A stretch of DNA of 20,000 nucleotides from Thelocarpon superellum (taxonomy: Eukaryota), in contig JAPEUG010000054.1 in the NCBI GenBank assembly GCA_026025795.1, positions 44,947 through 64,946 on the forward strand, written 5' to 3'. This document shows positions 1 to 20,000 of the stretch, piece after piece (position 1 is the first letter of the stretch; every line of letters begins with the position of its first letter). A program made the translations under genes and the position numbers. A model generated the notes under the pieces. It saw only the letters and a program-made list of their open reading frames with translations. It did not search any database and had not been told where the DNA came from.

Positions 1-635
1 GGTCGGGCGGTACGTCCGTCGCCCTCGAGGGGATTTTCGACGCTGACGCGCGCGTCGACCGGGGACCCCCGGTCGCCGAACTCGCACCGCGGGCACCATC
101 TTGGCCGCACCACGAGCGACCAACCTTAGCTATCCGAAGAATCCTCTCCAACATCCCTTCCCCGTCCCCCAGTCCCGACGGAGGCGAAAAGGCTGTTCCG
201 GTTCAGGGCACAACCATGTTGCGTTTGCTGCCTGCTTCCGGCATGGTGGCACAGCACCGTCTGCCTTAGCGGATCTACACGTGGGGCGTCCCTATAGCAT
301 CGCAGTCCATGCGGCGGGTCGAGGCCCACGTCCATTGCTGTGGGCCGTGACCCCTCCGCCCTTCGGCATTGGTCTGATCTCATGCGCAAGATGGACGTTG
401 TATATAGTTCCGTCAGCTCAATTGTTCTGGTCAAAGGACAGCACCATGTCGCGAGAGCATCGCGGCGTGTTACTCCCTCTGTCATTCACTTCATGGGTGC
501 CGGAGTCCTACGTCCTGTGGCCTTAGTCCCCGGGATCAGATCTCCCATGTCGTCCACCTCGTCCCTCTTGGCCTCCTTGTGCTGTGCGAGCTTCCCATCC
601 TCTGTGCCTTCGTTGTCCGGAGCTATTCCCTCACT

Positions 636-671
636 CTCGCCATCGCCCTCGCCCTCGCCCTCGCCCTCGCC
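636..671 (+). repeat. (CTCGCC)x6 microsatellite, one ATCGCC variant, just upstream of the NOS start
   Basis: Read directly: ctcgcc atcgcc ctcgcc ctcgcc ctcgcc ctcgcc. Confidence 0.9.
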
Positions 672-698
672 ATCGTCTCTACCACGCCTGTGCCTACG

Positions 699-3600
699 AT
701 GCCGCATCCGCACGCGCAGCTGACAACGAGCAACATGCCCGGCCTGACCCACCTGAGTACCACCACGAAATGCCCAGCGTTGACCCCCGAGTTACAACGC
801 ATCCAGGACAGTCACGCCGTCCTTGCCTCCACCGGTTGCTCCGCGAAATTCTGTCAAGCGGGTCGTGCGGTCCACACAGATGAACCCCGCGTCGGCGAAA
901 ACCGTACCCTAGCCGCCGTGCTGCAGGAAGCCGAAGAGTTTCTACGCGACCTCCACCGTGACGGTGTTTTACCTTCCGACGACGCCCTGACCGCGCGTCT
1001 CCAACATGTCCGCGAGGAGATATGCCTGGGTGCCATCGACGGCCTCAGTCGACAGGATCAAGTACAATGCGAGCTGGGCGGAAACTGGACGCAAACTCCC
1101 CAAGAACTCGAGTTTGGTCTCCGTCGCGCCTGGCGGAATGCGAGGAAGTGCATCATGCGGTCCCACACAGAAGAGCTCAAGTGAGTTGCCTCGCGTCGGC
1201 GATCGTGTCCCTACCCGCATTGGCCACCGATGAGGGCGCCAGGCTGATTGCATCTCTAGGCTCTGCGACTTGCGTCACGTCAACACCAGCGCTGGCATGG
1301 CCCGGGCGTTGATCGACGGCATGGTACAGGCCTTCAATGGCGGCACCATTCAGCCCACCGGTGCGTCGGCCCTTTCAGCTCTGCATCCGGTGGGGGACAA
1401 GCGGATGATGGCTGACCTTGTCCGCTAGTTTTTGTCTTTCCGCCCCGCACCCCCAATAGCCGTGGACCTATGATCTGGAACCATCAGATCCTCGCCTTCG
1501 CCGGGGTAAGGGCCTACGTCGCTCGTGCAACCCCATATCAGAGTGCCGCTAACAGGGGTGATGCAGTATCAAACCGACGACGGCTCAGTGCTTGGTGATC
1601 CGAAGAATGTTGAGCTGACCAACTCCTTCATCGAGCTCGGCTGGCTGCCCCCGAAAAGCCGCAGCCGCTGGGACCTCTTGCCTCTCGTTACCATGGCTGA
1701 AGGGGATCTCCCCGTCATCGCCGAGCTACCTGCGAGTCTCCGCACGCTGGTCCCCATCCGCCACCCTCATTATGGCACCGCCTTCGAGGAGCTGGACCTG
1801 AAGTGGGTGCCGTTTCCGGCCTTGACCCGACTCGGCTTCGATATTGGCGGCGTGCAATACACTGCCGCTCCATTCGTCGGCTGGTATGCTTCCCTCGTCA
1901 CATCTCCGCCCTGGACTGACTGAGTGCCCCGTACAGGTTCATGGACGCCGAAATCGGAGTGCGTAACCTGGGCGACACGAGTCGCTATAACGTCTTACCA
2001 GATGTTGTCCGCGTCTTGGGCCTGACGGACGGGAAGCTCGAAGGTGGCGTCGAGGGCTTCGACGATCTGCCCGAGTATGAGCGACTCATGATGCTGTCAC
2101 GGGCCCAAGCCGAGCTCAACTACGCCGTGCATTGGTCCTTTCTCCGCGCCGGCGTGAGCATGTCGGACTCGATGACAGCCTCGACCAAGTGGATTCGCTA
2201 CGACGACGCCTTCCAAAAGAAGCACGGCTATCGACTGCCGTCAGATCCATACTGGCTCGCCCCCCCGCAGGGTTCGATCATCCCACTTTGGCACCGCGGC
2301 GCCGCGCCGAACTACCAGCCCAAACCTTTGATCGCGCGGCACGTCGAGGACCCGATCAAGGCGTGGGGACGCGAGAAGGACGCCTGGTCCGTCTTCACCA
2401 CACCCTGTCGCACGCTCCCGACGCGGCCGGAAGCGGGCGACGCCACGAACCGCATGAACGGTCGCCAGTCGGCGTCGACCGGCTTGAATGTGCGTGCGAC
2501 GGGCCGGTCCAGTGTTCCGACTCGGGTCGTTCCGCGACTGCAGATTGGGGTGGAGCGTCATATTACTCGCTCACAGCCGAAGCCGAAGACCAAGATCGTG
2601 GTCCGCTTCTGCAGTGAGGGCACTATGGCGGAGAATCTTGCGGGCAAGCTACATGGTCGCGTCCAAGAAATGATCAAGGCATCGGATCATGTGGACCTCT
2701 GTCCTCGCGTCGAGCCGCTCGACAATGTCGGCGCATCAGATCTCACGGCGGACAAGATCTTCCTCCTGGTGATCAGCTCCACTGGGCAAGGTGCCATACC
2801 CGCCAATGGATTGGCTTTTGCAGCGCTTTGCGGAACTCTTGCGTCAAAAGCCGTCTCGGACGGTAGCGAGTCCTTCCGATTCGACATCTTCGGCAACGGC
2901 GATAGCCGATACTCCACGACCTATAACGGTGGAGCCAGCAAGATGGCCGCTCATCTCCGGTCCGTTGGAGGTGTGGCGCTGGCCGGTGGCCTCTTTGAAG
3001 GCGACACGGCGGCCCAGGGACTCCCCTTATCGGCACTGAACGCGTGGTGGGACACGCTCAAATCCAGCCTGATGGACGTCGTGGGCAAAGGACTCCAAAC
3101 GCCGAGCTCGAGCGGGAGCGCGAGTAGCAGTATGGGGAGCGGAACGGAGGGGGTCCTGAGCGATAGCGACACCTCCATGCTGAGCTCCCGATCGTCGGTC
3201 ACGTCCTTGGACCGCTTCTTCCTCCGTGGACCGGAGCTCCTGTCGCACTTTCGCGACGCCGTCTTGGTCAAGACTTATCCCGCCGTGCCGCTCCGAGAGC
3301 AGGGATCGGTGCGGGTAACTCTGGACATTGGGCTGGAGTCCTACAAAGAGATGAGCTGCATTCAGATACTGCCGGTGACGTCCCCGGCAAAGGTGATGCG
3401 CGCCCTTGATGCGCTGTGTGTCAAGCCTTGGACGCCGGTGGAGCTTGGCTTGGACGCGGCCAAGAATCCATCCTATGCTAGATTCTTGAGGGAATACGTG
3501 GATCTCGAGCAGCCGTTTGTGGGGATGAAGTGGTGGGACCAGCTCGACGTGAACGCGCGCAAGCGTCTGGATCGGCAGACACTACGCGCACGACCGGTGC

Positions 3601-4406
3601 TGGAGGTGCTCGAACATCTCCAGGCACAGGACGTGCTCACCTACGCGCGATTCGATGACGAGTTCCAGCGGGGGCTATGTCTAGATATGGCGGTCCTCCA
3701 CCCACGCACCTACTCGGTCGCATCGTCGCTCCGGTTCCTCTGCGCGAATGGGACACACGGCTCCAGCAACAAGGTCGATGTGGTGGTCAAGGTACATCCG
3801 CAGGGACGATTCAGCAGCGTCTTCCTAAACGAGGCGTCGACTGGTGCATGTCTCCGATATCGCTTCGTCGATGGACATTCTGGTGACCGACTTCGACAAG
3901 ACACGTCGGCGGCGCTCATCATCGTGGCGACAGGTGCCGGGTTTGGCCCGGTGCGGTGCCTGCTCCAACAACGCATCGCCGTGACACGGGAGCACTTGGC
4001 AGCGGGTGGTTCCCTCCCTTCGCGCAAGTCGGCCATCTCGCTCTTTCTCGGCCTGCGACGCTCCGACGTGGCCATGACGATCCCCGTGGTGCGCGAAGCG
4101 TCGTCGTTGAACCTCATCGACATGCTTTCCATCGTGCCGAGCAACGAGAACAAGACCCGCGTGCACGACAAGGTGATGTCGGAGAAGTTTGCGTCACACG
4201 TGCGACGAAAGTTGTTCGATGGCCTGACGATGGTGTACGTCTGCACGAACCTGGACGCGGCCAAGGCGATCGCAGCCGCATTTGATGTCTTGGTCGGCGG
4301 CAACGAGAAAGGCATGACAACGCCGTCGACGGCAGGCACCACTACGAAGAAGATGAACAAGACGAAGATGATGTTGGGTGAACGATACATTGAGGAGGTC
4401 TTCTAG
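699..4406 (+). CDS. NOS: Nitric oxide synthase-like protein (oxygenase + flavodoxin + FAD/NADPH reductase), ~1148 aa. Exons 699-1180, 1260-1360, 1429-1505, 1567-1883, 1937-4406; alternative start ATG at 735
   Basis: Four GT-AG introns with branch sites join the frames (3447 nt CDS). Oxygenase motifs: CSAKFC (Cx4C), AWRNARKCIMR (heme-thiolate; NOS AWRNxxRCxGR), IWNHQILAFAGY, GDPKN, PFVGWFMDAEIGVRN (NOS GWYMxxEIG), DPYWLAPP. Reductase motifs: SSTGQG and FGNGDSRY (FMN), RTYSVASS (FAD), ATGAGFGP (NADPH), C-terminal RYIEEVF. Confidence 0.92.
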
Positions 4407-4470: not shown

Positions 4471-4590
4471 GAAACGGAACGGAACGGAACGGAACGGAAC
4501 GGAATGGAAAGGAAGAACATGAAGGAAGGAAGCAAAGGAGGAAAGGAGGAAAGGAGGAAAAGGAGGAACGGGATGGGAGAAAGGAGACGA
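4471..4590 (+). repeat. (GGAAC)x5 microsatellite followed by a purine-rich GGAA/GAG low-complexity tract downstream of the NOS stop
   Basis: ggaac x5 at 4476-4500, then ggaat ggaaa ggaag and an almost purine-only tract. Confidence 0.9.
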
Positions 4591-5189: not shown

Positions 5190-6202
5190 CTAGGATGTTC
5201 CAAGCGCCGCCATGCGCTGGAAGCAGTTGGCATAAGCCACGTGCACCTCGGGCACCTCGAAGTGATACTCCTTCAACTTCGTCACTAGCTTGGTGGTGTC
5301 GAGCTCGCAATTGCTGCGGCCAGCCTTGAGGATCTTGCTCTGTTCCTCGAGTGAGAAGTTCTTCCACGTGAAGCTCGGTCGGACGTATTGCTTGAAAAGC
5401 GCCAGCACCTCGTTGTGCGAGATGGCGCCCGGGTTGGTGAAGTTGTACACCCCGATCTCCTTGTGCTCGGCCATCAAGATCGAGGCCGGGAGCAGGTCGT
5501 GCAGGATCGTGTTGGAGTTGGGCACGTCCACCACGCGTTCGTACTTGGCGATCTTTGTCACAAACGAGCGCGGGTGGAGGTCGTCCGATACCGGCATGCG
5601 CAGCCTCAGGATGAGACAGTTCGAATACGTCTGCATGATCTGTTTTGCGTGTCAGGCTCGATGCTCCTGGCTGGCCACGGGCCGATGACCCCTACCTCTT
5701 CCACCTTGGATTTGGTGGCGGAGTAGTACGAGCCGGCGAAATTGGCCGGGTCCGTTTCCACGTAGCCCGGCCCTCCGATCGGATGCTTGTCGTCATAGGC
5801 ATAGATGCCTGCCAGGTTCCTGTCAGCAATCGAGATGGACGTCCACGGACGGATGGGATGGCTTCTCGACTGACAGCCCGTTGCAAAGACGGTGATGTGG
5901 ATATTCTTCAGAAAACAGCAGTCCGTCAGGTTCAGCGTGCCAATGACATTGCTCCGAACCGTGGCCTCCTTGTTGTCCTCGCACCAGTCGACATTGGGCC
6001 GGCCGGTGCAGCCAGCACAGTTGAGCACATGCGTGGGCTTCACTCGCTCGAGCTCGGCCAAGACCGACTCGCGGTTCTCCATCCGCACGGTCGTCGAGTG
6101 CACCGTCTCGCCTTGTTTGGTCAAGAGCTCCTTGAGGTGGCCAGCCACCCACCCTGCACCACCCCAAATCAGGAAGATATTGCCTTTGGACGAATCGACC
6201 AT
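5190..6202 (-). CDS. NRS/ER: NDP-4-keto-6-deoxy-glucose 3,5-epimerase/4-reductase (nucleotide-rhamnose synthase, NRS/ER; RmlD-like fold), ~296 aa. Exons 6202-5875, 5808-5696, 5639-5190
   Basis: GGAGWVAG Rossmann motif, TGRPNVDWCE, ATGCIY, YSATK (YxxxK), LRLRMP, NFTNPGAISHNE and RSNCELD all match plant/fungal NRS/ER. Introns 5874-5809 and 5695-5640 give an 891-nt CDS. Confidence 0.93.
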
Positions 6203-6721
6203 GGTGACAGCACTTCTGCGGAAATGCCCAAAAGGAGGAGACGAAAAATCGGTCGGCGGACTCGACTCTGGTGCAGGAGAGTCGTGGCAGCCCCCCCGCT
6301 ACCGAGCGGGACAGCGTCGTCAGGCGAACGAGAACCCCACGCCGGTACCCCTAACGACCCGTACCCGTGCCTGAAAGCATGGGTGAAGGCCGCCCCACGC
6401 CAGCGACCGACGCCGGACGCAGCACAGGCGCCAAGCCAAGGCTAATAATAATAATGGCATGGGGTGCTCGCCTTCTCACCCCCGGGCTCTCACACCTCTG
6501 AAACCAGCAGCATGGCGACCGTGTTCGTACTCGTGCTACAGGCCCACGCTCCCTACACCGGTGAGTGGATCGCATGAAATCGTCACGTATCTCTTCGCCG
6601 TTGGAAAGGCGTCCGCACTCGAGCCAGTCGTCGACATTGTCACGCCTCACTCCTCCATACCCATGTGGCGAGCGCACACTGGCACAGCGACGCGGGTGCT
6701 ACACTCGAAAGGGGCCCAACT
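6203..6721. promoter_or_regulatory. Putative bidirectional promoter between NRS/ER and DUF5672-like paralog A
   Basis: 519-bp interval between head-to-head start codons. No specific binding site identified. Confidence 0.5.
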
Positions 6722-7852
6722 ATGAGCGGGCTGCCCACGACCCACGAGTCTTCATGGCGCCAGTCCTTTCAGTCGACCCTGGCGCTGGCGTCCATGGGGA
6801 TGAAGAAACCCCGCTTCTACATCGCCGCCACCGTCGGTGCGCTGCTGCTCCTCTTGTTGTATGTCGCAGCCAGGCCAGGCCCATGTCCCGCGTCTGCCGC
6901 GAGCAGCCACTGACCGCAAAGCAGTTGGACCATACACACGTCCGACACCTCTCTGGCCGAACTCGAAGTGCCATCGGTGACGCTGGACTTTCATTCGTCG
7001 CCCTTCAATAGCAGCAGGCTGGCGCTGCTGGTGGAGAACCGGAAGATGCCCAATCTGGTGCCGCTGATGCTGCACATGATGTCGGTCGTGCCGCCAGAAT
7101 GGCGGTTCAACTTCATGGGCTCGGAGGAGTCGGTGGCACAAATGAACGGCTCGGCCGCCATCCGACGGCACGTGAGCAGCGGCAAGCTCGACCTGACCCT
7201 CGTGCCATCCAACATGAGCGTCGCGAGTGCAGAGGAGATCAGCCAGTTCTTCACCACGCTGTGGCTGTACGACACGGTGCTGGCGCCGGCCGAGCACCTC
7301 TTTGTCTTCCAGACCGACAGTGAGTGCGACCTCTCCTCCGCTCGTCCGGCCGCGAGGCAGACGCTGATCCACAATGCACCAGGTATCCTCTGCGCCAACA
7401 GCGAGCAGAGCCTGAACGACTGGATCGATTACGACTGGATCGGGGCGCCATGGATGCCAGAAGACCGATGGGGCGGCAACGGCGGCCTCTCCCTGCGACG
7501 AGTGAGCGCGATCAAGGAGATTCTGCAGCACCAAGAACGGCGAGTCGACTCGCAGGCCGAGGACGGCTGGCTCAGCGACCGACTTGCGGCGCGACCCGGC
7601 GCGCGCGTTGCCAACGCGAGCGAATCCGGCCGCTTCTCCAGCGAAACGCTCTTCAGCGAGCGACCGATGGCCTACCACATTGGCGGCTCGGGCACGATGA
7701 TGCCCGCCGCCTTGCACCCCAAGAAGAACCGGCAGCAGATCTACGAGTACTGTCCCGAGTTCAAGCTGATCTTGGAGGTCATGGATGTCGATGGCCGCAT
7801 CCCCGAGGGATGCGCCCTGGGAGACACGCATTTTGATGACGGATCGTATTAG
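6722..7852 (+). CDS. Type II membrane DUF5672-like protein A (putative glycosyltransferase), ~333 aa. Exons 6722-6858, 6925-7319, 7383-7852
   Basis: Basic KKPR followed by a hydrophobic anchor (FYIAATVGALLLLLFW). Motifs FQTDSILCANS, YDWIGAPW, GGNGGLSLRR, EDGW, PMAYH and YCPE, which I recognise as typical of DUF5672. Introns GTATGT..CAG and GTGAGT..CAG; 1002-nt CDS. Confidence 0.85.
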
Positions 7853-8149
7853 GAGCATTGGCTTAGCTTGGCTTGGTTGAGGGTGGCCGAACTTCGCGTT
7901 CTGTATGAGTGCTGTACTGAGCTGTTTGATATCTGGGTAGATGGGTAGTTGGGTATTCTAGTGGTAGCAATACGTTTGGGGTTGATCACATCGACTCCGT
8001 CTTGGCTATGGTCCGATCGTGCCCAGGCAACCCGTGCTTCCATTTCCATTCGCATCTACTCTATCCATGCATCCTAAAGAATACGCCTGGGTCCAATCCC
8101 TGCATTCGACGGCTCGTTGGTGGGCCGGGACTACCAGCGAACCCCCATA

Positions 8150-9621
8150 TCACTTTTTGGTATTCATCATGATGTGGGAGTAGCTGTTACGCTCGTCAGC
8201 TGTGCCTGCCAATGGGACGAGATGGAGAGCGGAGCGAGGCCGCGGGTGACGTACGAGATCATCCCGCCTAGCGCGAGTAAAATGCCGAAGATGCCCTTGT
8301 CGTTCACCGCCCGCCCGCTCGCGATCCAGCCCAGCGCCACGATGGAACATGTCTTGAGGTGGCCCACGACCGTGCTGCTGACCGGGCCGGCGCCGGAGAT
8401 GATGAAGAATTGCGAGATGTTGATGAGACATGCACAGAGCCCGCTCTGCCCTGGATGTCAGTCGTGGGTCAAGAGCAAGACGGAGGTTGTCCCGCACGTA
8501 CCATGAGCACCAGAATGCATCGACCGAGCGTCAGGTCCGACCAAGTCGGGAGCGTGTCGGTGAAGGGAATGACGTAGAGAAGGAGACAGCCTCCAACGGG
8601 CATCAGGTTGAAGAGGAGCTGCATGCTGGCTAGCTGAAGTCGCTTCAGGTATGACGCCACCCAGACCGTGTACACGGAACTGGCCAGCACGCCGGCAAAG
8701 GCAAAGAAGACGCCTGTCGGCGAGGTCGGCTTGGCCTTGAGGTTCGGATTCCCACGAGAGTCGTAGTATGTCACCATGGCCACCCCGAGGCATGCCGGCA
8801 CAAGGGCGAGCGCGGCGGCCCGGGAGATCTTGGTGCCGTAGAGGACAAAGTTGATGATGACGACCGTGGGCGTCAGGAGGATCCGCGAGATCTGGTAGAA
8901 GGTGACGGACGAGAAAGCGAGCGAGGTGTTGGGCAGGATGACATTGAGCGCCAGCGCCAGCGCCAGCGGGGCCATGGCCCTGATGGGCACGCGTTGTGGC
9001 ACAAAGAGGCCAAACTTGGGCCGTGACACGACATAGAGCGCGGCACCGGAAAGGAAGAAATGATACGCGGCAAAGCTGGTCTGCGCGTGCCGGAAGGCCT
9101 CCAGGTCGAAGATGTGCTTGTTGATGAAAACCTGGGCCTACGTGTAAGTCCCCCTCTCGATCCAAGACGCCACACGCCGCCGGGGTTAGGGGACGTACGA
9201 TGCCAATGGTCGCCAGCGTGTTCACCGTCATCCACAAGGCCAGTCGTCCTCTGGACTGACCGTCGCCTCGATCCTGCACCTTCTCCTCGCTGACGGGTTC
9301 GTCGCGGTCCAGGGACTGAGCCAGGGCATCGTCGACGCTTTCGCCACCCTCGCTCACCGAACTCAAGGAGCTCACGTCGCTGAAATGCAGCACCTCCTCT
9401 TTGGACTCGACGTTGCCCACTTGGACCACGAACGGCTCATCCTCGTGGGTTGGGGGAGATTGAGGCATGTTTGGTGATGAGGAGGAGGAAGCGGCATCCG
9501 CAGTCGCGTCAAGTATGCCTTTGCTCTCGTCCTGGGCCAGCTGTGGCTGGAGGCTGCGAGGTGCGGACCATGGCTTCTGCTTCACACGGCCGCTCCACAG
9601 CGTACCGACAAGTTCTGGCAT
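8150..9621 (-). CDS. Nucleotide-sugar transporter, TPT/SLC35 (DMT) family, similar to SLC35E3 and plant URGT/UXT transporters, ~425 aa. Exons 9621-9199, 9131-8502, 8445-8255, 8183-8150
   Basis: IGIVFINK, NTSLAFSSVTFYQISRILLTP, GPVSSTVVGHLKTC and multiple hydrophobic segments. Three GTACGT..CAG introns give a 1278-nt CDS. Confidence 0.9.
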
Positions 9622-10403
9622 GATGAACAACGGACATGCGGCCAGGAGCAGTGTACAGGACCGGCCCTGTCGAGACGTGAAGGGTGCCAGCGTCTGGAGA
9701 GGTGCGACGAGCCATAGGCGAGACCTACCGCTGCTATTGGGGACCTCCCTACGGGAGTGGTCGACGAGTCCTGCTGGAATTACAAAGGAGCTCGTTAGGC
9801 GCACTCGTACCGGCCGTGCATGGTGCCTGAACGCCCGAGGCGCCGCACACGGCTGCATGACACGCCACTACCGTTACTTTCCGCGCCACTGGGACGACTG
9901 GCGTTCGCAGGGTTCAGTGGCCACGGCTCGTGCGCCCGGTGGTGGCACTGACCCGCCCCAGGCCTTGTCCCACGGTGTCATCCCATCCCGGCCGACGGTG
10001 GCCGTTTTCGAACCTAACCGTGCCTGTTTCGCCGTCTGCTGCGCCTCCATGCACTGGCCAGCACGTCGCGTCCGGTCATTGCTGCCACCTCACCATCATC
10101 CGCATTGACAGGATCAATCGCTGGAGCTCGGCTGGTTGCGGAGGCTCACCGTCTGGAGATCACCTTCGACGGGACCCGCGTCACGACGCTATTGAATCCG
10201 ACTGTAGCCGTCAGGGCTTTGCACGCATGAAACGAGAGACTTGGACATTCCTTCCAGCCTTCCAGGTGGTCTCTTGAGTCCGGCTGTTGCAAAAAGGATT
10301 TTGGGTGCCATCCTGGGGATCGTCGTGCCCTATCGGTACACTTCTCCTATTCATCGGTCTGCGCTGCCACTGAGCGGTCGTTGAATCCTCGTCGTTGGAC
10401 ATC
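9622..10403. promoter_or_regulatory. Putative bidirectional promoter between the transporter and the 4,6-dehydratase
   Basis: ~780-bp interval between head-to-head genes. No specific binding site identified. Confidence 0.45.
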
Positions 10404-11873
10404 ATGATGAGCGCGGAATATCCTGCTGGCATGTACCATCAGTCTCCTCGACGAGGCGACTTTGCGCTGACTAGCGGGCGGTTCAGCGGCGGGGCCGAAT
10501 GGTGGCGGCAGCCATCTCGCGGTGGAAGGGTCGGTGCTGAAAGGCACCACCCAGTTCGAGCCGCTGCCGGAAGTTAAGAACATCATGGTCACGGGCGGCG
10601 CGGGCTTCATGTACGACACCCCCCGACCATGCTCCAGATCAGATCCAGATCCAGAATCAAATCGTCGGCGTTCCGGGCGACCTTGATCGATCGCTGCTCG
10701 GGACGGACTCGTGCTAATAGCGCTGCCTCCAATTAGTGCGAGCTGGGTGGTGAGGCACCTGGTGCTCACTTATCCCCATGCCTACAAAGTGGTTTCGTTC
10801 GACAACCTGGACTATTGCTCTTCGCTGAATAACACGCGAATGCTGGACACTCGCAAGAACTTTGCCTTCTTCCACGGGGATATCAAGCGGTCCGAGGACG
10901 TGGTGCGGTGCATCAAGATGCACGAGATCGATACCATCATGCATTTTGCGGCGCAGTCGCACGTCGACCTGAGCTTTGGCAACTCCTATCGCTTCACCAG
11001 CAACAATGTGTACGGCACGCACGTGCTGCTGGAGTGCGCCAAGGAGATGAAGATCCGCCGATTCATCCATGTCTCTACGGATGAGGTCTACGGCGAGATC
11101 GATGACCAAGATGAGGATCCGATGGAGAGCAGCCTGCTGGCTCCCACCAACCCCTATGCCGCCAGTAAAGCGGCGGCGGAGATGCTGGTGAATGCGTACT
11201 GGAAGAGCTTCAAGCTGCCGGTGATCACGGTGCGGAGCAACAATGTATATGGGCCCCACCAGTTTCCCGAGAGTAAGCCTGTCCTTCCCTCCTTCTCTTC
11301 TGTCCCCCTCGCCTTTGCTCTTGAGCTCCCATCCTCGCCGTCGCCATGGCCTGATGTCTGACCGGTGTGGCAGAGGTGATTCCCAAGTTTGCCTGCCTGC
11401 TACAACGGGGCTCGCCCTTGATCCTCCATGGTGATGGCAAACACACGCGGCGCTATCTTTACGCGAGCGATGCGGCAGATGCCTTTGACACGGTCTTGCA
11501 CCGCGGCTGCCTCGGCCAGATTTACAACGTGGGCTCGCGCGACGAGATCTCCAACTTGCAGCTCTGCTCTGAAGTGCTCCGTCTCTTCCACCTGCCGCAC
11601 GACACAGAGGAGGAGCGGGCCAAGTGGATCACGCACTCGCGCGATCGGCCCTTCAACGACCGACGCTACGCAGTGAACGCGACGAAGCTACATCAGCTCG
11701 GATGGGAGCAGAAGGTCTCCTTTGCCGAGGGACTCGAGACGACGGTCGCGTGGTACCGGCTTTATGGGCAGAGTTGGTGGGGCGATATTCGGAATGTCTT
11801 GGTCCCCTTCTCCTACGTCGCAGATAAGAAGGTGGTCTCCGAGGACGAGGGCGTGGATATTCCATGTCCATGA
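10404..11873 (+). CDS. UDP/dTDP-glucose 4,6-dehydratase (RmlB / RHM N-domain-like), ~394 aa. Exons 10404-10428 (via an inferred GC-AG intron), 10487-10610, 10737-11272, 11374-11873
   Basis: KNIMVTGGAGFIAS, DNLDYCSS, HFAAQSHVD, STDEVYG, TNPYAASK, RSNNVYGPHQFPEK and DRPFNDRRY. Introns 10611-10736 and 11273-11373 are canonical; the first exon is less certain. Confidence 0.93.
10634..10657 (+). repeat. Short imperfect (CCAGAT)n repeat inside dehydratase intron 2
   Basis: ccagat cagat ccagat ccagaat. Confidence 0.6.
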
Positions 11874-12341
11874 CCACGGGTCCGACCACGTGCTGGGCGC
11901 GTGGCGCCTCGTGCACCCATCTCTTGCCACCCCCGCATTCCACCACGTCATTTTGTGTCATGTCTTCCTTTCACCCTCGCTTTGGTCTGAAGTCCATGTG
12001 TTCGACGATGCTCTGAGAAGTAGATGCAGAAGATGTCGTACGCATGAAGTACCGCTAGTAGATGCTTGAGATCAGGTCGAAAAGTAGATGCATCACGACG
12101 GCGTAACTACACTGATTGGAGGCGGCACGTCAGAACCAATGGCGCTTTGGTGGGCGCTATGTGACGGCACGCCACCCGTCTTGCGTGATCTGCGCGAACA
12201 TGAGCAACGCCGGCGCCCCTACGCAGGTACCGTCGCTAACGCTCGCCCCAAGAGATTCCAGGAGACTTGCTCGAAGACCCAAGCCAGGGATACCCAGCAC
12301 CCCAATAACAACGGTGCAGCAAGCCAGGGCCTGGCTGTGCG

Positions 12342-12411
12342 CCCAGCACCCAGCACCCAGCACCCAGCACCCAGCACCCAGCACCCAGCACCCAGCACCC
12401 AGCACCCAGCA
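12342..12411 (+). repeat. (CCCAGCA)x10 perfect heptamer tandem repeat, intergenic
   Basis: 70 nt of perfect 7-mer units, plus an isolated copy near 12293-12299. Confidence 0.95.
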
Positions 12412-12620
12412 CTTCGTACTCGCATCCTCGTGCTCTACAAGTAGAGTATTCAACGACCGCTAGTACTACTCTTACACGGCTGCATCAACAAATGACGTAG
12501 GAGGACTCGTAGCCTGGCTCCAGACACACGATCGGTCATGCAGCTGGCAGCTTGGCTTCAGGATGAAACCCAAGCGAAGTGAGCTCGCCGGCTGTGCTCG
12601 TGGGGGTGGTGTCCGGGCTA

Positions 12621-12641
12621 CTCGTACTCGTACTCGTACTC
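12621..12641 (+). repeat. (CTCGTA)x3.5 short repeat
   Basis: ctcgta ctcgta ctcgta ctc. Confidence 0.7.
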
Positions 12642-13118
12642 CTTGACCTCCTTCAAAGGAGTTCGTCCTGCTGCGACAATGACCTGGACTCGTACCCGTC
12701 TATTACCGGCCGCCGTAGTGCCGGCGCGAGGGATCAGAACACGGCCCTCGCTACGAGCGACGAGTAGGGAGCCGCTACGGGGCGGGGCCTCGTGCTTGAC
12801 GATGGACACCATTCCATTTGCGATGAACGGAGGACTTTCGGTAGGAGGGAGCGCCAAGAAATATCCTCGTCGGCGCATAAGCATTGGGCGTGAGGTGAGA
12901 CTCTCTACGCCGTCCACCCAAACATTCAAAGGCCACAGCGACGCAACCGGCGAGGGGCGGCCATGGTGCCCGCAAGCACCCGAATTACGACCGACGTCTC
13001 TGCGCGCTCAGTCTTGACCCAGGCAACATCGCCAGTGGCTTCACGACGGTGAGAGCTGCCTCGCGTCGACGCAATCCTGACGACGCGCCAAGATCGGCTC
13101 CCTCTCCCTCCATCCAAG

Positions 13119-14214
13119 ATGTTGCCGGGAATCTTGTCCCGGGGCGACCAGCACACGCTCTGGATCTATCTATCCACTTTGGCCCTGGTGTAGGTGACCT
13201 CTGATCGAGCGTTGCCCGCGCACGAGACGAGATGGCATGGCGCTGATGCACCGACCGCACAGATGGCTGTTTGCCGCCCTCCTCCCCTCGCCCTCGAGCA
13301 CAACCCACATGATCCAGCAAATCCTCCCCTCGGTCCGGGTCGACTTCCATCCCTCGCGCTCGCCCTACAATGAATCGAAACTGGGCCTGATGGTGGACAG
13401 CCGGCCGCTGCCGCAACTGGCACCGTTGTTGTTGCACATGATGTCGGTGGCGGGCCCCGACTGGAGGTTTCTGTTCCTAGGCTCCAACGAGAGTGTGGCG
13501 CTCGTCAACACCAGCTTTGCCGTGCGCCAACAGCTCGAGGCCGGTCGACTGTCGCTGCGAGAGATGCCTGAGGAGAACGTGACAACGAGCCAGGAGCAGT
13601 ACAGCCAGCTGTTCACCAACCTAGCCTTCTACGAGAGCCTTCTCCCGGCCGAGTTCTTGTGGGTCTTTCATGCCGACAGCGTCATCTGCGCCAACTCGGA
13701 GCAGAATCTCGACGATTGGCTAGAATACGACTGGGTCGGCGCGCCATGGTATGTGACGAGGACTGCGACTCGCTGTGGCCTCGCCTCTTCGATACAACGG
13801 GGAGACTGACGCACTTTCGGCAGGGACGAATCCAAAAGCGTTTCGTGGAACACGCGCAAAGGAAACATGCCAGGCGGCGATGGCGGATTCTCACTGCGGC
13901 GCATCTCGCGCGTCATGGAAGTCCTACGCTTCCAAACCCGGTACGTGGAGGACATCGATCCAGAGGACGAGTGGCTGGCGGCGCGCATCGGCAATTTGCC
14001 CAATGCCAAGATGGCCTCGCCGAATGATGAGCGGCGGTTCTGCGTAGAGGATCAGTGGTATGAGCAGCCCATGGGCTATCACCTGGGCCGCGTGCTGGAA
14101 GCCAGCGGTGATCCTATCTGGAACGATCCCCAACGACGACGCGCCATCTTTGACTATTGTCCCGAGGTCAAGATGGTCCTGCCCATGGTGAAAGTCAACC
14201 GCACGTGTTTCTAA
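13119..14214 (+). CDS. Type II membrane DUF5672-like protein B (paralog of 6722-7852), ~315 aa. Exons 13119-13189, 13263-13748, 13824-14214
   Basis: N-terminal hydrophobic anchor (LWIYLSTLALVWLFAALL). Aligns by eye with paralog A: LLLHMMSV, WRFLFLGS, FHADSVICANS, YDWVGAPW, GGDGGFSLRR, EDEW, PMGYH, YCPE. Introns 13190-13262 and 13749-13823; 948-nt CDS. Confidence 0.85.
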
Positions 14215-14352: not shown

Positions 14353-16286
14353 TCATCTTCCGTGCCGCCAAATAGCATCAGCCATCTTAACCACCTGCGC
14401 CATGTGCGCGACGTCATGGACGCGCACGATGTCCGCGCCGCCAGCCACCGCGGCGCTGATGGCAGCCGCAGTACCCCAGATGCGATCCCTGGGCTCCGCG
14501 ACGCCCGTGATCCTCCCAATGAAGGCCTTGCGACTGGGTCCCACCAGCCACGGCAAGCCCTGTAGGCCTGACCAGTCGCGCAGGAGGTGGAGGTCGCGTA
14601 GCAGCTCGAGGTTCTGCGCCTGCGTCTTGGCGAACCCGATGCCCGGATCAACGAGGATGCGCCATCGTCGTATGCCTGCCGCCTCCGCGGCTTGGACTCG
14701 TGCGGAGAGCTCGCGCGCCACGGTAGGGACGATCCCCTCGGGATATTGCGTCAGTTGCGTCATGGTGCTCGGTGTTCCCCGCATGTGCGTCAGGCATATG
14801 GACGCGCCTAGCTTGGCGACCGTCGCGAGCATCGCGCGGTCCAGCGTGCCGCCCGAGACGTCGTTGACCAGGTCCGCACCGGCGCCGACGGCCTCCGCCG
14901 CGACCCGCGCCCGGTAGGTGTCGATGCTGATGCAGAGAGGACGGGTTCGCGCTGCGGATCGCAATGCCCGAATCATGGGTACGGTGCGGCGAAGTTCTTC
15001 CTCTTCACTGACCTCCATCGCACCTGGTTTGCTCGACTGCCCGCCGACGTCGACGATCGTGGCGCCAGTGACGTCGAGTAGCTCCATCGTGCTGCTGGCC
15101 AGGGCATCCACGTCCACGTTGAAATTATCGCCGCCGTCAGAGAAGGAGTCAGGCGTGACGTTCACAATTGCCATGACTTGCGTCGAACGGTTTTCCGCTA
15201 GAGGAGTCAGGGGTGGTAATGATGGAGAAACAGGCGTAAGTGTCGATGTAGCGGACTCAGAACCTGGTAGAGACTGTAAAGTGGTTTGAAAGGTTGTCAA
15301 TGGGTGCGGCGAGGGGTGGAAGCCGTTCGGAATAAGGCTGCCTGGTCAGTCCTAATCCTGCCCTGCGACAAGGTGTTACTTACTCGCAGAGTGGACGAAG
15401 GACGAATTCTCGCTCCAGCATCAGCGGATGCGGGATTGTGAGCCTTGAGTGCTGCATGGAAAGGTGGTCATAGAGCAAGATATCCAAGTCGATGTTCCGA
15501 GGGCCTTTATCAACCACTTTCTGCCGACCCATATGCCGTTCGATGTCTTGAAGCTCTTCAAGCAGCTCCAGAGGGCTCAGCTCCGTTGTAATCTAATTGT
15601 CACCGCGTTAGACGCACCGCGGGCCACCGTGTACCATCGACTTCTATTTCGACTAACCTCACCAACACCATTTACAAACGGAGCTTGATCGACGACGTAC
15701 ATGGCCTCGGTTTCGTATAACGAGCTGGTCCGGGCCAGCGCAATTCCTCGTCGTTCCATCTCACGACATGCCCGTTCAATCATCGCAATCCGATCTCCCT
15801 CATTGCTTCCTAGGCCTATGAAGGCCCGTGCTTTTGGTGTGGATGAGGTGGTATCATTGTTGGCGGCTGAGGTGGGCAAGGGTCTTCTCGCGGCCACCCC
15901 GGAGGATTTCCTGTCGTGTGCGACTGATTCCGTACAAATTGGCCACCTTCTAGAATGTTGAGGGATCTGCAATAAGGGTTCATCTCGATAGAGTGCCGCG
16001 TGTCTGGAGCACAAACGTCAGCGAATTGAAACACCGCTACGCACAATGGCGGGCTAAGCAGATTGACATACGAGCAAGAGCCTTCCCCGCCGCTCTTTTC
16101 GGCTTCGCGATAGTCAGCTGTGTGTTTCAACGATGACACGCTTAGACATGATTGGCTTCCAGGCAAAGCTAAGCTACGTCCTGGTCTGAGCAGTGCGCGC
16201 CGGCGCTCTGTGTGGAAGGATGAATGTGGCCAGAGCTCGAATGAGCGACGCAGAGACCATCGCAAGAGCAGTGGAAACTCGAGCAT
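14353..16286 (-). CDS. FOL1: Folate synthesis protein, HPPK-DHPS fusion with a probable mitochondrial presequence, ~584 aa. Exons 16286-16072, 16003-15658, 15592-15384, 15337-14353
   Basis: HPPK motifs: AFIGLGSN, SSLYETE, GPRNIDLDILLY, IPHPLMLEREFVLRPL. DHPS motifs: NVTPDSFSDGG, SIDTY, NDVSGG, DPGIGFAK, GPSRKAF, RVHDV. Three GT-AG introns give a 1755-nt CDS; the first exon is less certain. Confidence 0.92.
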
Positions 16287-18204
16287 GTTTTCTGTCTCAT
16301 TTTGCCAAACTAGGATACGGGTGGCTGCATGTGGTAATGGAATGTTGAGTGGGTATGAGGATCGTGTGGTATCGAATATGTGGCGGATGCGTCTAGAGGT
16401 GCGGCGCACAATTGAGTTGATGTCGGATATTAGTAAGCGGAGATTGGCGCGAAAGTGTGGTGGTGGGGACTCCTAGTCTCCAGGCGCTCAAAGACTCCGC
16501 CCTCTGCCCATCTCCACACTAACCGTGCTTGGAGCAGGCTATATCCAAATGCTCTACCAAGGGTGAAGAGGATCTTGTTGAAATCACTGGAAAGAAATAT
16601 ATCAGACGTCGATTGTGTGCGAGGTGGGTCGTTACGGACAGACAGGAGAGATCGTTATCGTAATCATCTTGAGACCGTTACGAAAAGAGATCAGATGCAG
16701 AAGCAGCAGGCCCGTGGGGGAGACTTGGGCGCATCAAGACTTTTACATCAAGACCACCAAAAAGACTATACCAAGGTTCGTATGACAAGGTCACCTCGGC
16801 GATGTCTTCCAGCCCGCGAGACTTGTCTGCACCGTCGCCATCGACTCAAAAGACATCAGCATGGAGATCCATGATGTCGAAGCCCACCACCGCCGCCCAC
16901 GAGAAACGCTGAGGAGCCAACGGCTTAGGGAGGAGACAAGTCCACTCTCTACCGAGGGACAACCGCCAGGGAATCTCCGGTGGACCGACGTGCGCGGTAC
17001 GGCAATCCGGAGAAGAGACTGCACGCTTGGGCCTACGAGAATTGCGCGAACGTTCGACAAGCCTGGAGCACAATCCGTTCCACTGCTGGACGTCCGCGGG
17101 TGCATAAGTCGTCACAGATGGGATACTTGAAGGAAGAGGTTTGCCACGATAGGAGCATCACATGCGTCATGTTCTGCGCGTGGGGGGCCATTGCAGATTT
17201 CGCAGAAGTGCGGAATACCATACCTAGGCTATGGGCGCAGGCGGGGTCGTGCACTGCCCGTACTCGTTGTGGGCCACGCACGAACGACTCACGAGTAGGG
17301 ATGGCTCGCAATATAAGTTGCGGCTCTGCGGTTCGGGTCCTTCGGTCGGCTCCCCTCGGCTCCCTCGATCATCACCTTGCCTTGGTGCGACCTTTCTCAC
17401 CGGCTTCGCGAGCAAGCTCCCCACACTCGGCGCGTGCCGCCCATGGTCTGTATTGGTAGTGCCACCAGGGCAATGAATGCTTGAGCCGGTGCTCACTGGG
17501 TATGGTCCGTCTAGATCAGGTCTTCATTCGTCCTAGCATCTCTAGATCTAGCCCGCTTCAGGCGTGAGTCGCTAGTCTCGTAACGTTGGAGACGCGCCCT
17601 GCCCGGGGCTAAGGGACGGCCTGGCGGGCGTTCGCCCTGACCTCAGCCGGTCCCGACGCGAAAGCGCCTTGCACACGCGACCTCCCTCGTCCAGGAGCGG
17701 CGACGCGGCCTCCATCGTACCGTGGTGCATGGTCAAGTCACTCTGGCCCATGTCTCGCTTCACTCCCCCGGTCACATCCGCCATGCTGGCGCCGGTGGAA
17801 GGCTCGACAGCAAAGACGACTTGCCTGCCGTTGTACCACCATCTCATAGGTCCTTTCCATCTGGCCCCCTTCGGATGAGAGATCACCGCACCTGGGTCCC
17901 ACCTAAACCCTAGCGCAGCGGCATGTCTCCCGGCGCGCACCTCGTCGGCCTCCAAGGCCTCCACGGCCATGCCCGATTCGACCCACGCCGCTCGGGATAC
18001 GAAATACCCACGGCAGAGGAGGCTTAGCTGTCAGCCTCGTCTCCCCTTGCTGTCGCCCCCGTCACACGACCCTTTAAAGACCCATGTGTAGCCCTTGCCT
18101 GGCCAAATGCACCCATCGCGCAACCCCGTCATCAATCATCATTGTTCGTATGCTGATGTCGAACGATGGGTCGACGCCTCGCGCCGCCGGTCTCGTTCAG
18201 CATC

Positions 18205-20000
18205 ATGCATCTTCTCTCGTGGCTCACCACCTGGCCCGCCTTGGTCTTGCTCCCCTCCCTCCCCACGGTGCGTGCTCAGCAAAATACCACACACTTCACG
18301 ACGCTCGTCGACGCCTTTCCCGACCTCTACACTCTGCAAAAGCCCTTGACCAGGCCCACATACTTGGGCGGCCAAGACTTCGACCGTTGCTGCCGCGTCG
18401 CCGTGAGCGAGATGTTCTATATCGGCGACGATGGCTTGCTGCAGAAGCGTCCTTCAACGGCCGACATCACCATCGACGCGGGCCCTGACGCATTCCTCAA
18501 CTCGTTCCCATGCAACGCCAGCTATTCGCAAAATCCAAATGGTAGCCCGACGGTGGCCGTGAGCTTCAATTGGTGCTCGTCGAACTGCGGCGGTTGGGAG
18601 CTCTCCAGTGGCTCGAATCTGAAGCAGTGGGTGCAACCGCTGGTGGGCTTCATCCTGCCCGCCGTCGTCTTCTGTCTGGCGATACCTCGCCGCCGCCGGC
18701 TGTACATCCCCGACAGTCTGTTCCCCAGCGACGTCACCAATTGGATGAAGCTTTTCAAAGCCATGTTCTTTGCCATAACCGCTGCCCTGATCGTCACGGT
18801 CGACACCATCGTCTGGCTGTGCGTCGTCTTCGCCTTCTCCGGGCCTTTGCTGCTGAGTGGGCTCTACGAAGCCCTGCTGGACAAGCGTGTGATCGACCAC
18901 ATGCAGGAGAAGCTCGACAATCGGAGGCTCAGTGTCCAAATGCGGGCGCGCATCTATTATACCGTGCTCGTGGGCAACCTCGACGTCGATCAAGCCTGGA
19001 ATTCCACCATGGACCTGACCTCGCGTCTTCCCAACACTATCCCAGATACGGACACGCTGGCCTTGCGCTCCCCTCGACCTGGCGTGGGAAGTTCCCTGGA
19101 GCAGATGAAGGCGGGGCCACTCTTCAACACCAGGGAATCGGCCTACGCACCAGACGGATCCCGAGATGTGAGCCCGTCCGCGCCGGCAGGACGGACGCTT
19201 CGCCCCGATGATGAGGTCCAGTCCATCGGCGACCGTTTACAGCCGATTGGACATAGTCGGACCACATCACAGGCGTCTCCCTACCCGCCACCCATGCAGG
19301 AGCTGGACTTTCGGAAGCACATCGCGGAGACGCGGATCCGACTTAACGCGATGTTGGCATGTCAATATAGCTTTGGCTCGATTGTTGGAGCTCCGGTACG
19401 CCTCCCGTCCTCAGGCATGGCCTAACGTGGCTTACGAGAGGTCTAGGTCGTTTTCTTCATCGGATCCTTCATCTTCGCCCTGCTCTCGGTGAAGACGGAT
19501 CTGGGCGACAACGGTGAGAGTCCTCCAGGCCGTCGCCGGATCATGCTCACTATGATGGCAGACACGAGTCACGCGCTCGCATTTGGGATGTGGTGGATGA
19601 GGTGAGATCACGGTGCCACTTGTGTCGGGCCTGGACCTGTAGCTGACAGAGCATGCAGCATCCCACACCTTGCGATCGTGACAGGATGTCTCTTGGCTGG
19701 AAACAACCCCAACACACTTGAAGCGATTGTGACGGAGTCGATCAACGCCGAGCAAGCGGATAGCGCGGCGGCGGGCGAAGCTCCAAAGTCCTTCCGCGAG
19801 CACATGCGCTCGTGGATGGGAACGGTAGTGGTTCCGACGTACGAAGCGCATTACCAGCCGGCGTGGATGTGGGAGCGGGGCCGGAGCAAGCGTGAGTGGG
19901 TGATGAAGCTGTGTCAGGAATTTCATGACGAGGATCCCGTGGAGCTGCGACAACTGCGCAACAGCCTCCGGATGAGTCCCGGCGACTGGACGATGATTTC
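18205..20000 (+). CDS. Uncharacterised membrane protein (signal peptide, Cys-rich extracellular N-domain, multiple TM segments), truncated by the window edge. Exons 18205-19395, 19447-19513, 19562-19601, 19659->20000
   Basis: Signal-like MHLLSWLTTWPALVLLPSLPTVRA; CC..C..C..C ectodomain; hydrophobic segments (WVQPLVGFILPAVVFCLAI, VVFFIGSFIFALL, ALAFGMWWMSIPHLAIVTGCLLAGNNP). Three GT-AG introns maintain the frame to the end of the window. Confidence 0.8.

Follow-up and report, generated by a model that had tools for sequence, protein, structure and literature searches.

This work concerns a five-gene cluster from the fungus Thelocarpon superellum, in which two predicted enzymes of uridine diphosphate (UDP)-L-rhamnose synthesis lie together with a nucleotide-sugar transporter and two proteins of the DUF5672 family (Pfam PF18922). 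The window analyzed is a 20,000-nucleotide stretch of contig JAPEUG010000054.1 (assembly GCA_026025795.1, positions 44,947 to 64,946 of the forward strand), and the cluster occupies positions 5190 to 14214 of this window. An earlier interpretation made from the DNA letters without database searches (referred to here as the sequence-only reading) had described a self-contained, operon-like module for rhamnosylation in the secretory pathway. The cluster is real: it is a glycan-building gene cluster that is conserved in parts.

Five genes in ~9 kb

The gene order is epimerase/reductase (ER, minus strand), DUF5672-A (plus), transporter (minus), 4,6-dehydratase (plus), and DUF5672-B (plus). This layout comprises two head-to-head pairs, ER/DUF5672-A and transporter/dehydratase, plus a single DUF5672-B. 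The features are listed below; L numbers denote metagenome loci introduced in a later section.

5190..6202, minus strand: ER, predicted UDP-4-keto-6-deoxyglucose 3,5-epimerase/4-reductase (NRS/ER type); 296 amino acids; exons 6202-5875, 5808-5696, 5639-5190
6203..6721, no strand: ER/DUF5672-A spacer; 519 bp between head-to-head start codons; divergent likewise in L002
6722..7852, plus strand: DUF5672-A, predicted type II membrane GT-A glycosyltransferase; 333 amino acids; exons 6722-6858, 6925-7319, 7383-7852
8150..9468, minus strand: nucleotide-sugar transporter, TPT/SLC35E3-like; 374 amino acids; exons 9468-9199, 9131-8502, 8445-8255, 8183-8150
9469..10403, no strand: transporter/dehydratase spacer; 935 bp, head-to-head; divergent pair also in L002, L015, L027, L035, L069, and L070
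10404..11873, plus strand: predicted UDP-glucose 4,6-dehydratase; 394 amino acids; exons 10404-10428, 10487-10610, 10737-11272, 11374-11873
13119..14214, plus strand: DUF5672-B, second predicted type II membrane GT-A protein; 315 amino acids; exons 13119-13189, 13263-13748, 13824-14214

All five genes contain introns and are intact, with canonical introns and open spliced frames free of internal stops, and the consecutive order and ~9-kb extent given by the sequence-only reading were borne out. The spliced ER and DUF5672-A models are identical to database proteins P0159 and P0001, labeled M1838_004690 and M1838_004691, which are consecutive genes in a metagenome-assembled genome of T. superellum. 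The first dehydratase intron (10429-10486) appears to be GC-AG; a GT-AG alternative was rejected, as it yields no open frame from an ATG. For the transporter, the last intron (8254-8184) was located from homolog C termini, which places the gene end at 8150 and replaces a three-exon model (stop at 8167) with one of four exons; an alternative upstream ATG is possible at 9621.

The four spacers yielded no additional gene. The two longest spacer open reading frames (ORFs) lacked a Pfam match, and a tblastx comparison with 80 metagenome loci gave zero matches for any spacer, in keeping with the earlier claim that no unrelated gene interrupts the cluster. The term operon-like fits only loosely: the arrangement is one of two head-to-head pairs plus one gene, and no promoter word common to eight head-to-head spacers rose above shuffled sequences. 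Assuming a genome of 25 to 45 Mb, one given gene would be expected to fall within 10 kb of another by chance in ~4 to 8 cases in 10,000, and the grouping of the five genes is more than chance.

ER is 81% identical to Botrytis cinerea BcER (P0287, annotated as UDP-4-keto-6-deoxyglucose-3,5-epimerase/4-reductase) and 78% identical to Pyricularia oryzae MGG_09238, with similarity to the characterized enzymes over the full length. Its closest solved relative is PDB entry 4QQR (E = 3e-98), its Pfam matches are Epimerase and RmlD_sub_bind, and it carries a glycine-rich NAD(P) loop (GGAGW) and a YxxxK motif (YSATK). UDP-L-rhamnose synthesis has been shown for orthologs (PMC5698552, PMC7695001), and by orthology the ER of the window would make the same product. 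The dehydratase has the motifs of an extended short-chain dehydrogenase/reductase (GGAGFI, STDEVYG, and YAASK), matches Pfam GDP_Man_Dehyd and Epimerase, and is ~59 to 63% identical to dehydratases of related loci. Its best PDB and profile matches are deoxythymidine diphosphate (dTDP)/TDP-glucose 4,6-dehydratases; one exon, which on its own falls below the whole-protein cutoff, matched TIGR01181 at E = 5e-53, compared to 4e-26 for galE and 6e-14 for gmd. The two enzymes co-occur in the top 100 fungi, and their shared intermediate, UDP-4-keto-6-deoxyglucose, is toxic when ER is missing (PMC5698552). In B. cinerea, dh and er mutants both make no rhamnose (PMC7695001).

The transporter has nine hydrophobic segments (threshold of 1.2), as in a multipass membrane protein, and shares 50 to 60% identity with fungal proteins that bear the names SLC35E3 or TPT and with the transporters of related loci. 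One exon matched the Pfam TPT/EamA families weakly (E of about 0.005), and the homolog P0124 scored above the TPT cutoff. The protein contains a GHLKT motif, and GHxKT is present in all homologs compared; we take this motif to be a mark of the plant NST-KT subfamily, which includes UDP-rhamnose/UDP-galactose and UDP-xylose transporters. Close homologs adjoin DUF5672 genes in 15 of the 80 metagenome loci. Plants are documented to have a family of transporters for UDP-rhamnose/UDP-galactose (cited in PMC10013753). In Seiridium cupressi, a transporter homolog (P0125) is annotated as fused to a GT2/GT92-like domain, an annotation that may reflect either a real fusion or a merged gene model.

DUF5672 proteins as candidate glycosyltransferases

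DUF5672-A matches PF18922 at E = 2e-32 (112.6 bits against a gathering cutoff of 24.4), and DUF5672-B exceeds the cutoff on both scanned exons (61.1 and 47.1 bits); the two are 44% identical over 285 columns. In a Pfam search of P0001 at E ≤ 10, PF18922 was the sole match, and the RgpF profile PF05045 was not matched. Each protein has one N-terminal hydrophobic segment (residues 32 to 50 in A and 13 to 31 in B) with N-glycan sequons C-terminal of it. Both are thus predicted, as anticipated by the sequence-only reading, to be type II membrane proteins laid out like Golgi glycosyltransferases, with a short tail, one transmembrane helix, and a putative luminal domain.

A structure model of DUF5672-A was built from 115 sequences (mean predicted local distance difference test [pLDDT] score of 85.8). 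Foldseek returned 370 matches at E ≤ 0.001, with glycosyltransferases in every match listed and glycogenin, UGGT, GT8, and GfsA among the first. VIA-align returned 114 chains with Z scores of at least 8, nearly all of the GT-A fold among the matches listed, including LARGE1 (Z of 11.7; root mean square deviation [rmsd] of 3.8 over 217 aligned residues), BoGT6a (Z of 11.6; 3.3 over 190), and Kre2 (Z of 11.5; 4.3 over 202); the top row, BcsA, had a Z of 12.2 but an rmsd of 25. The DUF5672-A model has in common with established GT-A families (LARGE1, GT6, Kre2/GT15, GT8, and GT31) a fold at Z scores of 10 to 12 and, if QTD at the putative DxD position is counted, four core motifs in the same order. 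It differs from them in that identity is 5 to 15%, QxD, ExD, or HxD replaces DxD, and the DUF5672 profile finds no match among PDB sequences at E ≤ 10. An Atlas search of DUF5672-A with PF18922 excluded gave only leads below 0.9 (WavE, 0.86; GT6, 0.85) and was not used as evidence.

The motifs of DUF5672-A are QTD (175 to 177), GGNGG (208 to 212), ED (237 and 238), and H276, and the corresponding set in DUF5672-B is HAD, GGDGG, ED, and GYH. On the model, QTD follows strand 4, E237 and D238 begin the helix at 237 to 246, and the His is C-terminal; the putative DxD position was placed through the secondary structure of the model. In an alignment with 93 fungal rows, E237 and G212 are present in every row and D177 and D238 in 92 each, and H276 is kept in all 82 rows that reach it. 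All four motif residues are also kept in the eight viral rows. These residues follow the motif order described for GT-A enzymes, among which the xED aspartate marks most inverting ones (PMC7185993). Because this aspartate is kept, DUF5672 fits an inverting enzyme. Inversion of UDP-beta-L-rhamnose yields alpha-L-rhamnosides, the linkage found in fungal rhamnomannans. Taken on the model and motifs, the DUF5672 genes of the cluster very probably encode luminal GT-A glycosyltransferases, and DUF5672 is probably a new glycosyltransferase family. In a set of paralogs (L051, L057, L063, and relatives), QPD replaces QTD and the 6 to 10 kb of flanking sequence lacks rhamnose genes; these proteins may have another function.

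A quick tree of 112 rows recovered clade A with a support of 98, a third clade with 97, and a less well supported B-type group with 89. DUF5672-B of the window joins the B-type partners of other clusters on a long branch with a support of 89, a weak placement in a tree that carries long-branch warnings, and no order of events is claimed from it. Because A and B fall in separate clades and their catalytic-domain intron positions differ, the pair is probably not a recent local duplicate.

Conservation of the grouping among fungi

The DUF5672 profile confirmed 331 metagenome stretches, of which the best 80 were analyzed and collapsed to 61 groups at 95% identity; most are short. Of the 61 groups, 11 have a close homolog of the transporter near DUF5672, 5 have the dehydratase, 1 has ER, 16 have a second DUF5672, and 4 have an additional gene resembling rgpF, a putative rhamnosyltransferase gene of bacteria. 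One locus, L002, carries all five gene types (B, ER, A, dehydratase, and transporter) plus a third DUF5672, and both head-to-head pairs are retained. Order and orientation match those of the window in L015, L027, and L035 (A plus, transporter minus, dehydratase plus) and in L069 and L070 (transporter minus, dehydratase plus, B plus). Eighteen groups have 3 kb or more on each side; 5 of these include the transporter, the dehydratase, or ER, and some partner is present in 10 of 12 clade A groups and 1 of 6 others. The transporter and dehydratase are linked in loci nearest Leotiomycetes. Other recurring neighbors (an aldehyde dehydrogenase, LMBR1, a P450, and a 639-amino-acid ORF) appear in subsets of related loci and were counted as flanking genes. 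The loci show no recurring gene for a further nucleotide sugar.

For named species, listings of ER and DUF5672-A homologs were paired by eye where both appeared, giving 20 species. ER and DUF5672 are consecutive or two apart in seven of these. Consecutive locus tags were found in Thelocarpon, Phylliscum demangeonii, Pycnora praestabilis, Gyalolechia sp. 2, G. ehrenbergii, and Loekoesia sp. 1, and in Aureobasidium four accession pairs are two apart and two further pairs 7 and 9 apart. The species with ER linkage presumably represent Lichinomycetes, Lecanoromycetes, and Dothideomycetes. The Cercophora accessions for DUF5672 and the transporter differ by 87. In B. cinerea, bcdh (Bcin03g03060), whose deletion abolishes rhamnose production (PMC7695001), lies three loci from the DUF5672-A gene BCIN_03g03030, and bcer (Bcin06g02380) is on chromosome 6. 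The sequence-only reading had also held that linkage of the two synthesis enzymes was already known in some ascomycetes; no such statement was found in the available parts of the literature, and the B. cinerea genes lie on different chromosomes (PMC7695001). Its proposed linkage of DUF5672 and transporter genes to rhamnose genes in other genomes, in contrast, held when synteny was surveyed. Overall, the linkage is conserved in parts across several fungal classes.

The grouping could in principle be leftover ancestral gene order among genes with no shared function. The cluster members are dispersed in many named species and in the loci nearest Sordariomycetes, and the spacers lack a shared promoter word, as this explanation would predict. 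However, the partners remain together through inversions and reordering while flanks change: the flanks of the window (the nitric oxide synthase-like gene, the folate gene, and the ORFs near 18 kb) were matched in none of the 80 loci, whereas cluster partners recur. Every member, moreover, is a nucleotide-sugar gene, and we regard mere leftover order as highly improbable.

Synthesis and transfer might also proceed as proposed below with a different substrate for the transporter (UDP-xylose, UDP-galactose, or the keto intermediate) or with a 6-deoxy sugar different from L-rhamnose as the luminal product. The pairing of transporter with dehydratase is the most stable of the head-to-head arrangements, with ER often elsewhere; homologs of the transporter bear generic names; in addition, UDP-4-keto-6-deoxyglucose has a luminal role of its own for human TGDS/UXS1 (PMC12488480). 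Against this stand the 81% identity of ER to an enzyme annotated as characterized, the co-occurrence of dehydratase and ER in the top 100 fungi, and the loss of rhamnose in both B. cinerea mutants, which together leave such a variant quite unlikely.

The RgpF-like gene was found at L015:5355-6575, L012:6484-7696, L014:6209-7861, and L025:6039-8573. It scored 0.97 in the Atlas search, with 26 of 30 matches in RgpF-bearing clusters. An alignment of the gene with 83 of 150 listed homologs gave 84 rows, of which 48 matched PF05045 at E ≤ 0.05 (best, 6e-14), and its structure model (pLDDT of 95) has a GT-A or nucleotidyltransferase-like fold (best Z of 12.9). With 1880 representatives over all of life at E ≤ 0.001, the family is large; named homologs occur in Rhynchosporium, Phylliscum (on another contig), Orbilia, and Pseudohyphozyma, while a 2017 survey gave no RgpF homologs in 24 fungal proteomes. 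A tblastn search of the window gave no RgpF-like match. In streptococci, RgpF is the proposed rhamnan-extending rhamnosyltransferase (PMC8327497). The RgpF-like gene therefore cuts both ways, in that it ties the cluster to rhamnan and also supplies a rival candidate for rhamnose transfer. The description of the cluster as self-contained is not supported: other fungi add a third DUF5672 clade and the RgpF-like gene, and the window also lacks an acceptor-building enzyme.

Genes outside the cluster were recorded as well. On the left, positions 408-4406 (plus strand) hold a nitric oxide synthase-like gene, in which NO_synthase oxygenase pieces are spread over three ORFs and accompanied by a flavodoxin domain and a tail resembling a reductase; a full-length gene of this type in an ascomycete may merit separate attention. 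On the right, a folate gene carrying both an HPPK and a dihydropteroate synthase domain (14353-16017, minus strand) ends 138 bp from DUF5672-B, and positions 18157-19998 (plus strand) contain long ORFs (422 amino acids and onward) that include hydrophobic stretches and match nothing in Pfam or NCBIfam. A perfect 7-bp tandem repeat (10.1 copies, 12342-12412) lies in the spacer preceding DUF5672-B, and other short tandem arrays lie at 628-675, 4473-4514, and 4506-4568.

A proposed luminal rhamnosylation pathway

We propose, with a probability of roughly 0.6, that the DUF5672 proteins are luminal rhamnosyltransferases supplied by the transporter, within an old luminal-rhamnosylation cluster of filamentous ascomycetes. 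[quoted passage not shown] The transporter would bring UDP-rhamnose into the lumen of the endoplasmic reticulum or Golgi, probably in exchange for uridine monophosphate. There, judging from the fold and motifs of the model, helix-anchored DUF5672-A and -B would act as inverting GT-A enzymes that place alpha-L-rhamnose onto mannan or glycoprotein glycans, with the xED aspartate as the base and the C-terminal His and QxD aspartate positioned where the donor or metal binds. As paralogs from old clades kept adjacent, A and B most likely would form different linkages or add successive residues. The core idea of the sequence-only reading, a module for secretory-pathway rhamnosylation, is strengthened by synteny and by the glycosyltransferase fold and motifs of DUF5672; rhamnose as the sugar transferred, and likewise the transporter cargo, we infer from context.

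A broader proposal goes further. DUF5672 would be an unrecognized family of alpha-L-rhamnosyltransferases of the inverting GT-A type that provides the principal route to rhamnomannans in fungi, and the cluster would be the ancestral rhamnosylation locus of filamentous ascomycetes, combining the synthesis of UDP-rhamnose, a transporter that would be the first known from fungi for this sugar nucleotide, two or three transferases each specific for a linkage and, in some lineages, a eukaryotic RgpF-like enzyme, as a counterpart of bacterial rml-rgp loci. We give this combined claim an even chance.

Several observations weigh against the proposed pathway. Thirteen of the 20 paired species have ER and DUF5672 at separate positions, namely, B. 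cinerea, two Verticillium and two Pyricularia species, Coleophoma cylindrospora, Zalerion, Immersiella, Coniochaeta, Phialemonium, Naviculisporaceae sp., and the fragmented assemblies of Fulgogasparrea and Polycauliona. Among metagenome groups with long flanks, 13 of 18 lack the transporter, dehydratase, and ER, including 5 of the 6 outside clade A, and only the DUF5672 pair is seen in loci nearest Sordariomycetes (L016, L019, L032, L044, and L058), a class that includes Sporothrix and Scedosporium, both rich in rhamnomannan. The structural matches of DUF5672-A are scattered over many GT-A families with none standing out, the rhamnosyltransferase RmlT (Z of 10.0) not being ahead, and the first DxD position is Q in 76, E in 12, H in 4, and R in 1 of the 93 rows rather than D. 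A transporter sequence cannot reveal its cargo, for which UDP-rhamnose is a proposal, and P. oryzae NST1 and NST2, which may or may not be orthologs of the window transporter, are reportedly mannose/glucose related (PMC10013753). Outside fungi, ER homologs were found in none of 52 DUF5672 loci (43 viral and 9 prokaryotic). The neighbors scanned there (92 of 222 candidate ORFs, from 29 loci) comprised 21 glycosyltransferase-family matches in 18 loci, 6 Methyltransf_24 proteins, and 4 NDP-sugar epimerases/dehydratases, which are general glycan genes and give no rhamnose-specific context. For the whole family, this setting supports a function as glycosyltransferase, not one specific to rhamnose. 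Finally, silencing of the GT-B genes RHT1 and RHT2, which are unrelated to DUF5672, reportedly lowers rhamnosylation in Sporothrix; both candidates are still termed putative (PMC13429783).

These points bear on a different division of labor, in which the cluster serves a rhamnose-containing glycan while DUF5672 adds another sugar (glucuronic acid, mannose, galactose, or xylose) that builds or caps the acceptor, with rhamnose transferred by RgpF-like or RHT-type enzymes encoded elsewhere. The RgpF-like gene exists in these fungi, within the cluster in four groups and on a separate contig in Phylliscum; the RHT1/RHT2 silencing and the lack of a tie between viral DUF5672 and rhamnose genes fit this arrangement, and Sporothrix O-glycans contain glucuronic acid besides rhamnose (PMC4226871). 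On the other side, DUF5672 constantly accompanies the UDP-rhamnose genes from class to class, whereas the window, L002, L027, L035, and L069 all lack the RgpF-like gene, and no other nucleotide-sugar gene recurs. We therefore judge transfer of another sugar unlikely and retain rhamnose as the preferred donor sugar of DUF5672.

The attachment of rhamnose to fungal walls is a long-open question. A 2014 genome paper reported no obvious rhamnosyltransferase in Sporothrix, and a 2017 survey gave none as characterized in fungi. In lichen polysaccharides, rhamnose has been reported infrequently and in small amounts. The cluster names candidates for the transfer and luminal import steps, and this analysis gives DUF5672 a fold and a likely mechanism and shows that RgpF-like genes exist in fungi. 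No description of the cluster was found in the literature searched, where an earlier mention of the neighborhood is still possible; in the parts available, DUF5672 was named only in the context of a streptococcal secretion system, and PF18922 and four ortholog locus tags were not mentioned. Because wall rhamnose affects immune recognition of Sporothrix and humans are not known to make rhamnose glycans, the pathway is relevant to diagnostics and to the choice of targets for antifungals. In eukaryotes, it is also unusual, as far as is known, for genes serving a secretory-pathway glycan to form a conserved cluster.

Among known systems, the fungal UDP-L-rhamnose pathway (B. cinerea bcdh/bcer, P. 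oryzae MGG_09238, and Verticillium dahliae NRS/ER) employs the same two enzymes, with ER 78 to 81% identical. The B. cinerea genes are separate, on chromosomes 3 and 6, whereas the window holds both in one cluster, and the literature consulted, in the parts available, assigns no transporter or transferase to that pathway, unlike the candidates proposed here. Plant URGT/UXT (NST-KT) transporters and SLC35E3 have the TPT/EamA superfamily and, probably, the GHxKT motif in common with the window transporter. Sporothrix RHT1 and RHT2 have been proposed for the same rhamnose-transfer task as DUF5672. Motifs given for Rht1 appear to resemble those of the N-glycosylation enzyme Alg13. Rht1 has been modeled as GT-B, a fold unlike the GT-A model of DUF5672, and the words synteny, Golgi, transmembrane, and Alg13 are absent from the available part of that paper (PMC12295706).

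Two gene clusters offer parallels in organization. The Aspergillus galactosaminogalactan cluster (uge3, gtb3, agd3, ega3, and sph3) joins a nucleotide-sugar enzyme with glycan-building genes, as the window does; it differs in its plasma-membrane synthase, its sugar, and its lack of a Golgi transporter and type II transferases. Streptococcal and lactococcal rml-rgp (gac) loci, which include RgpF/GacG (PF05045), unite nucleotide-rhamnose synthesis, transport, and rhamnosyltransferases in one locus, as is proposed here, and the RgpF-like GT-A gene that joins the fungal cluster in four loci, though not in the window itself, adds to this resemblance. The bacterial loci operate with dTDP-rhamnose, a lipid carrier, and ATP-binding cassette (ABC) export, whereas the fungal cluster would depend on a UDP-rhamnose donor and its import into the lumen.

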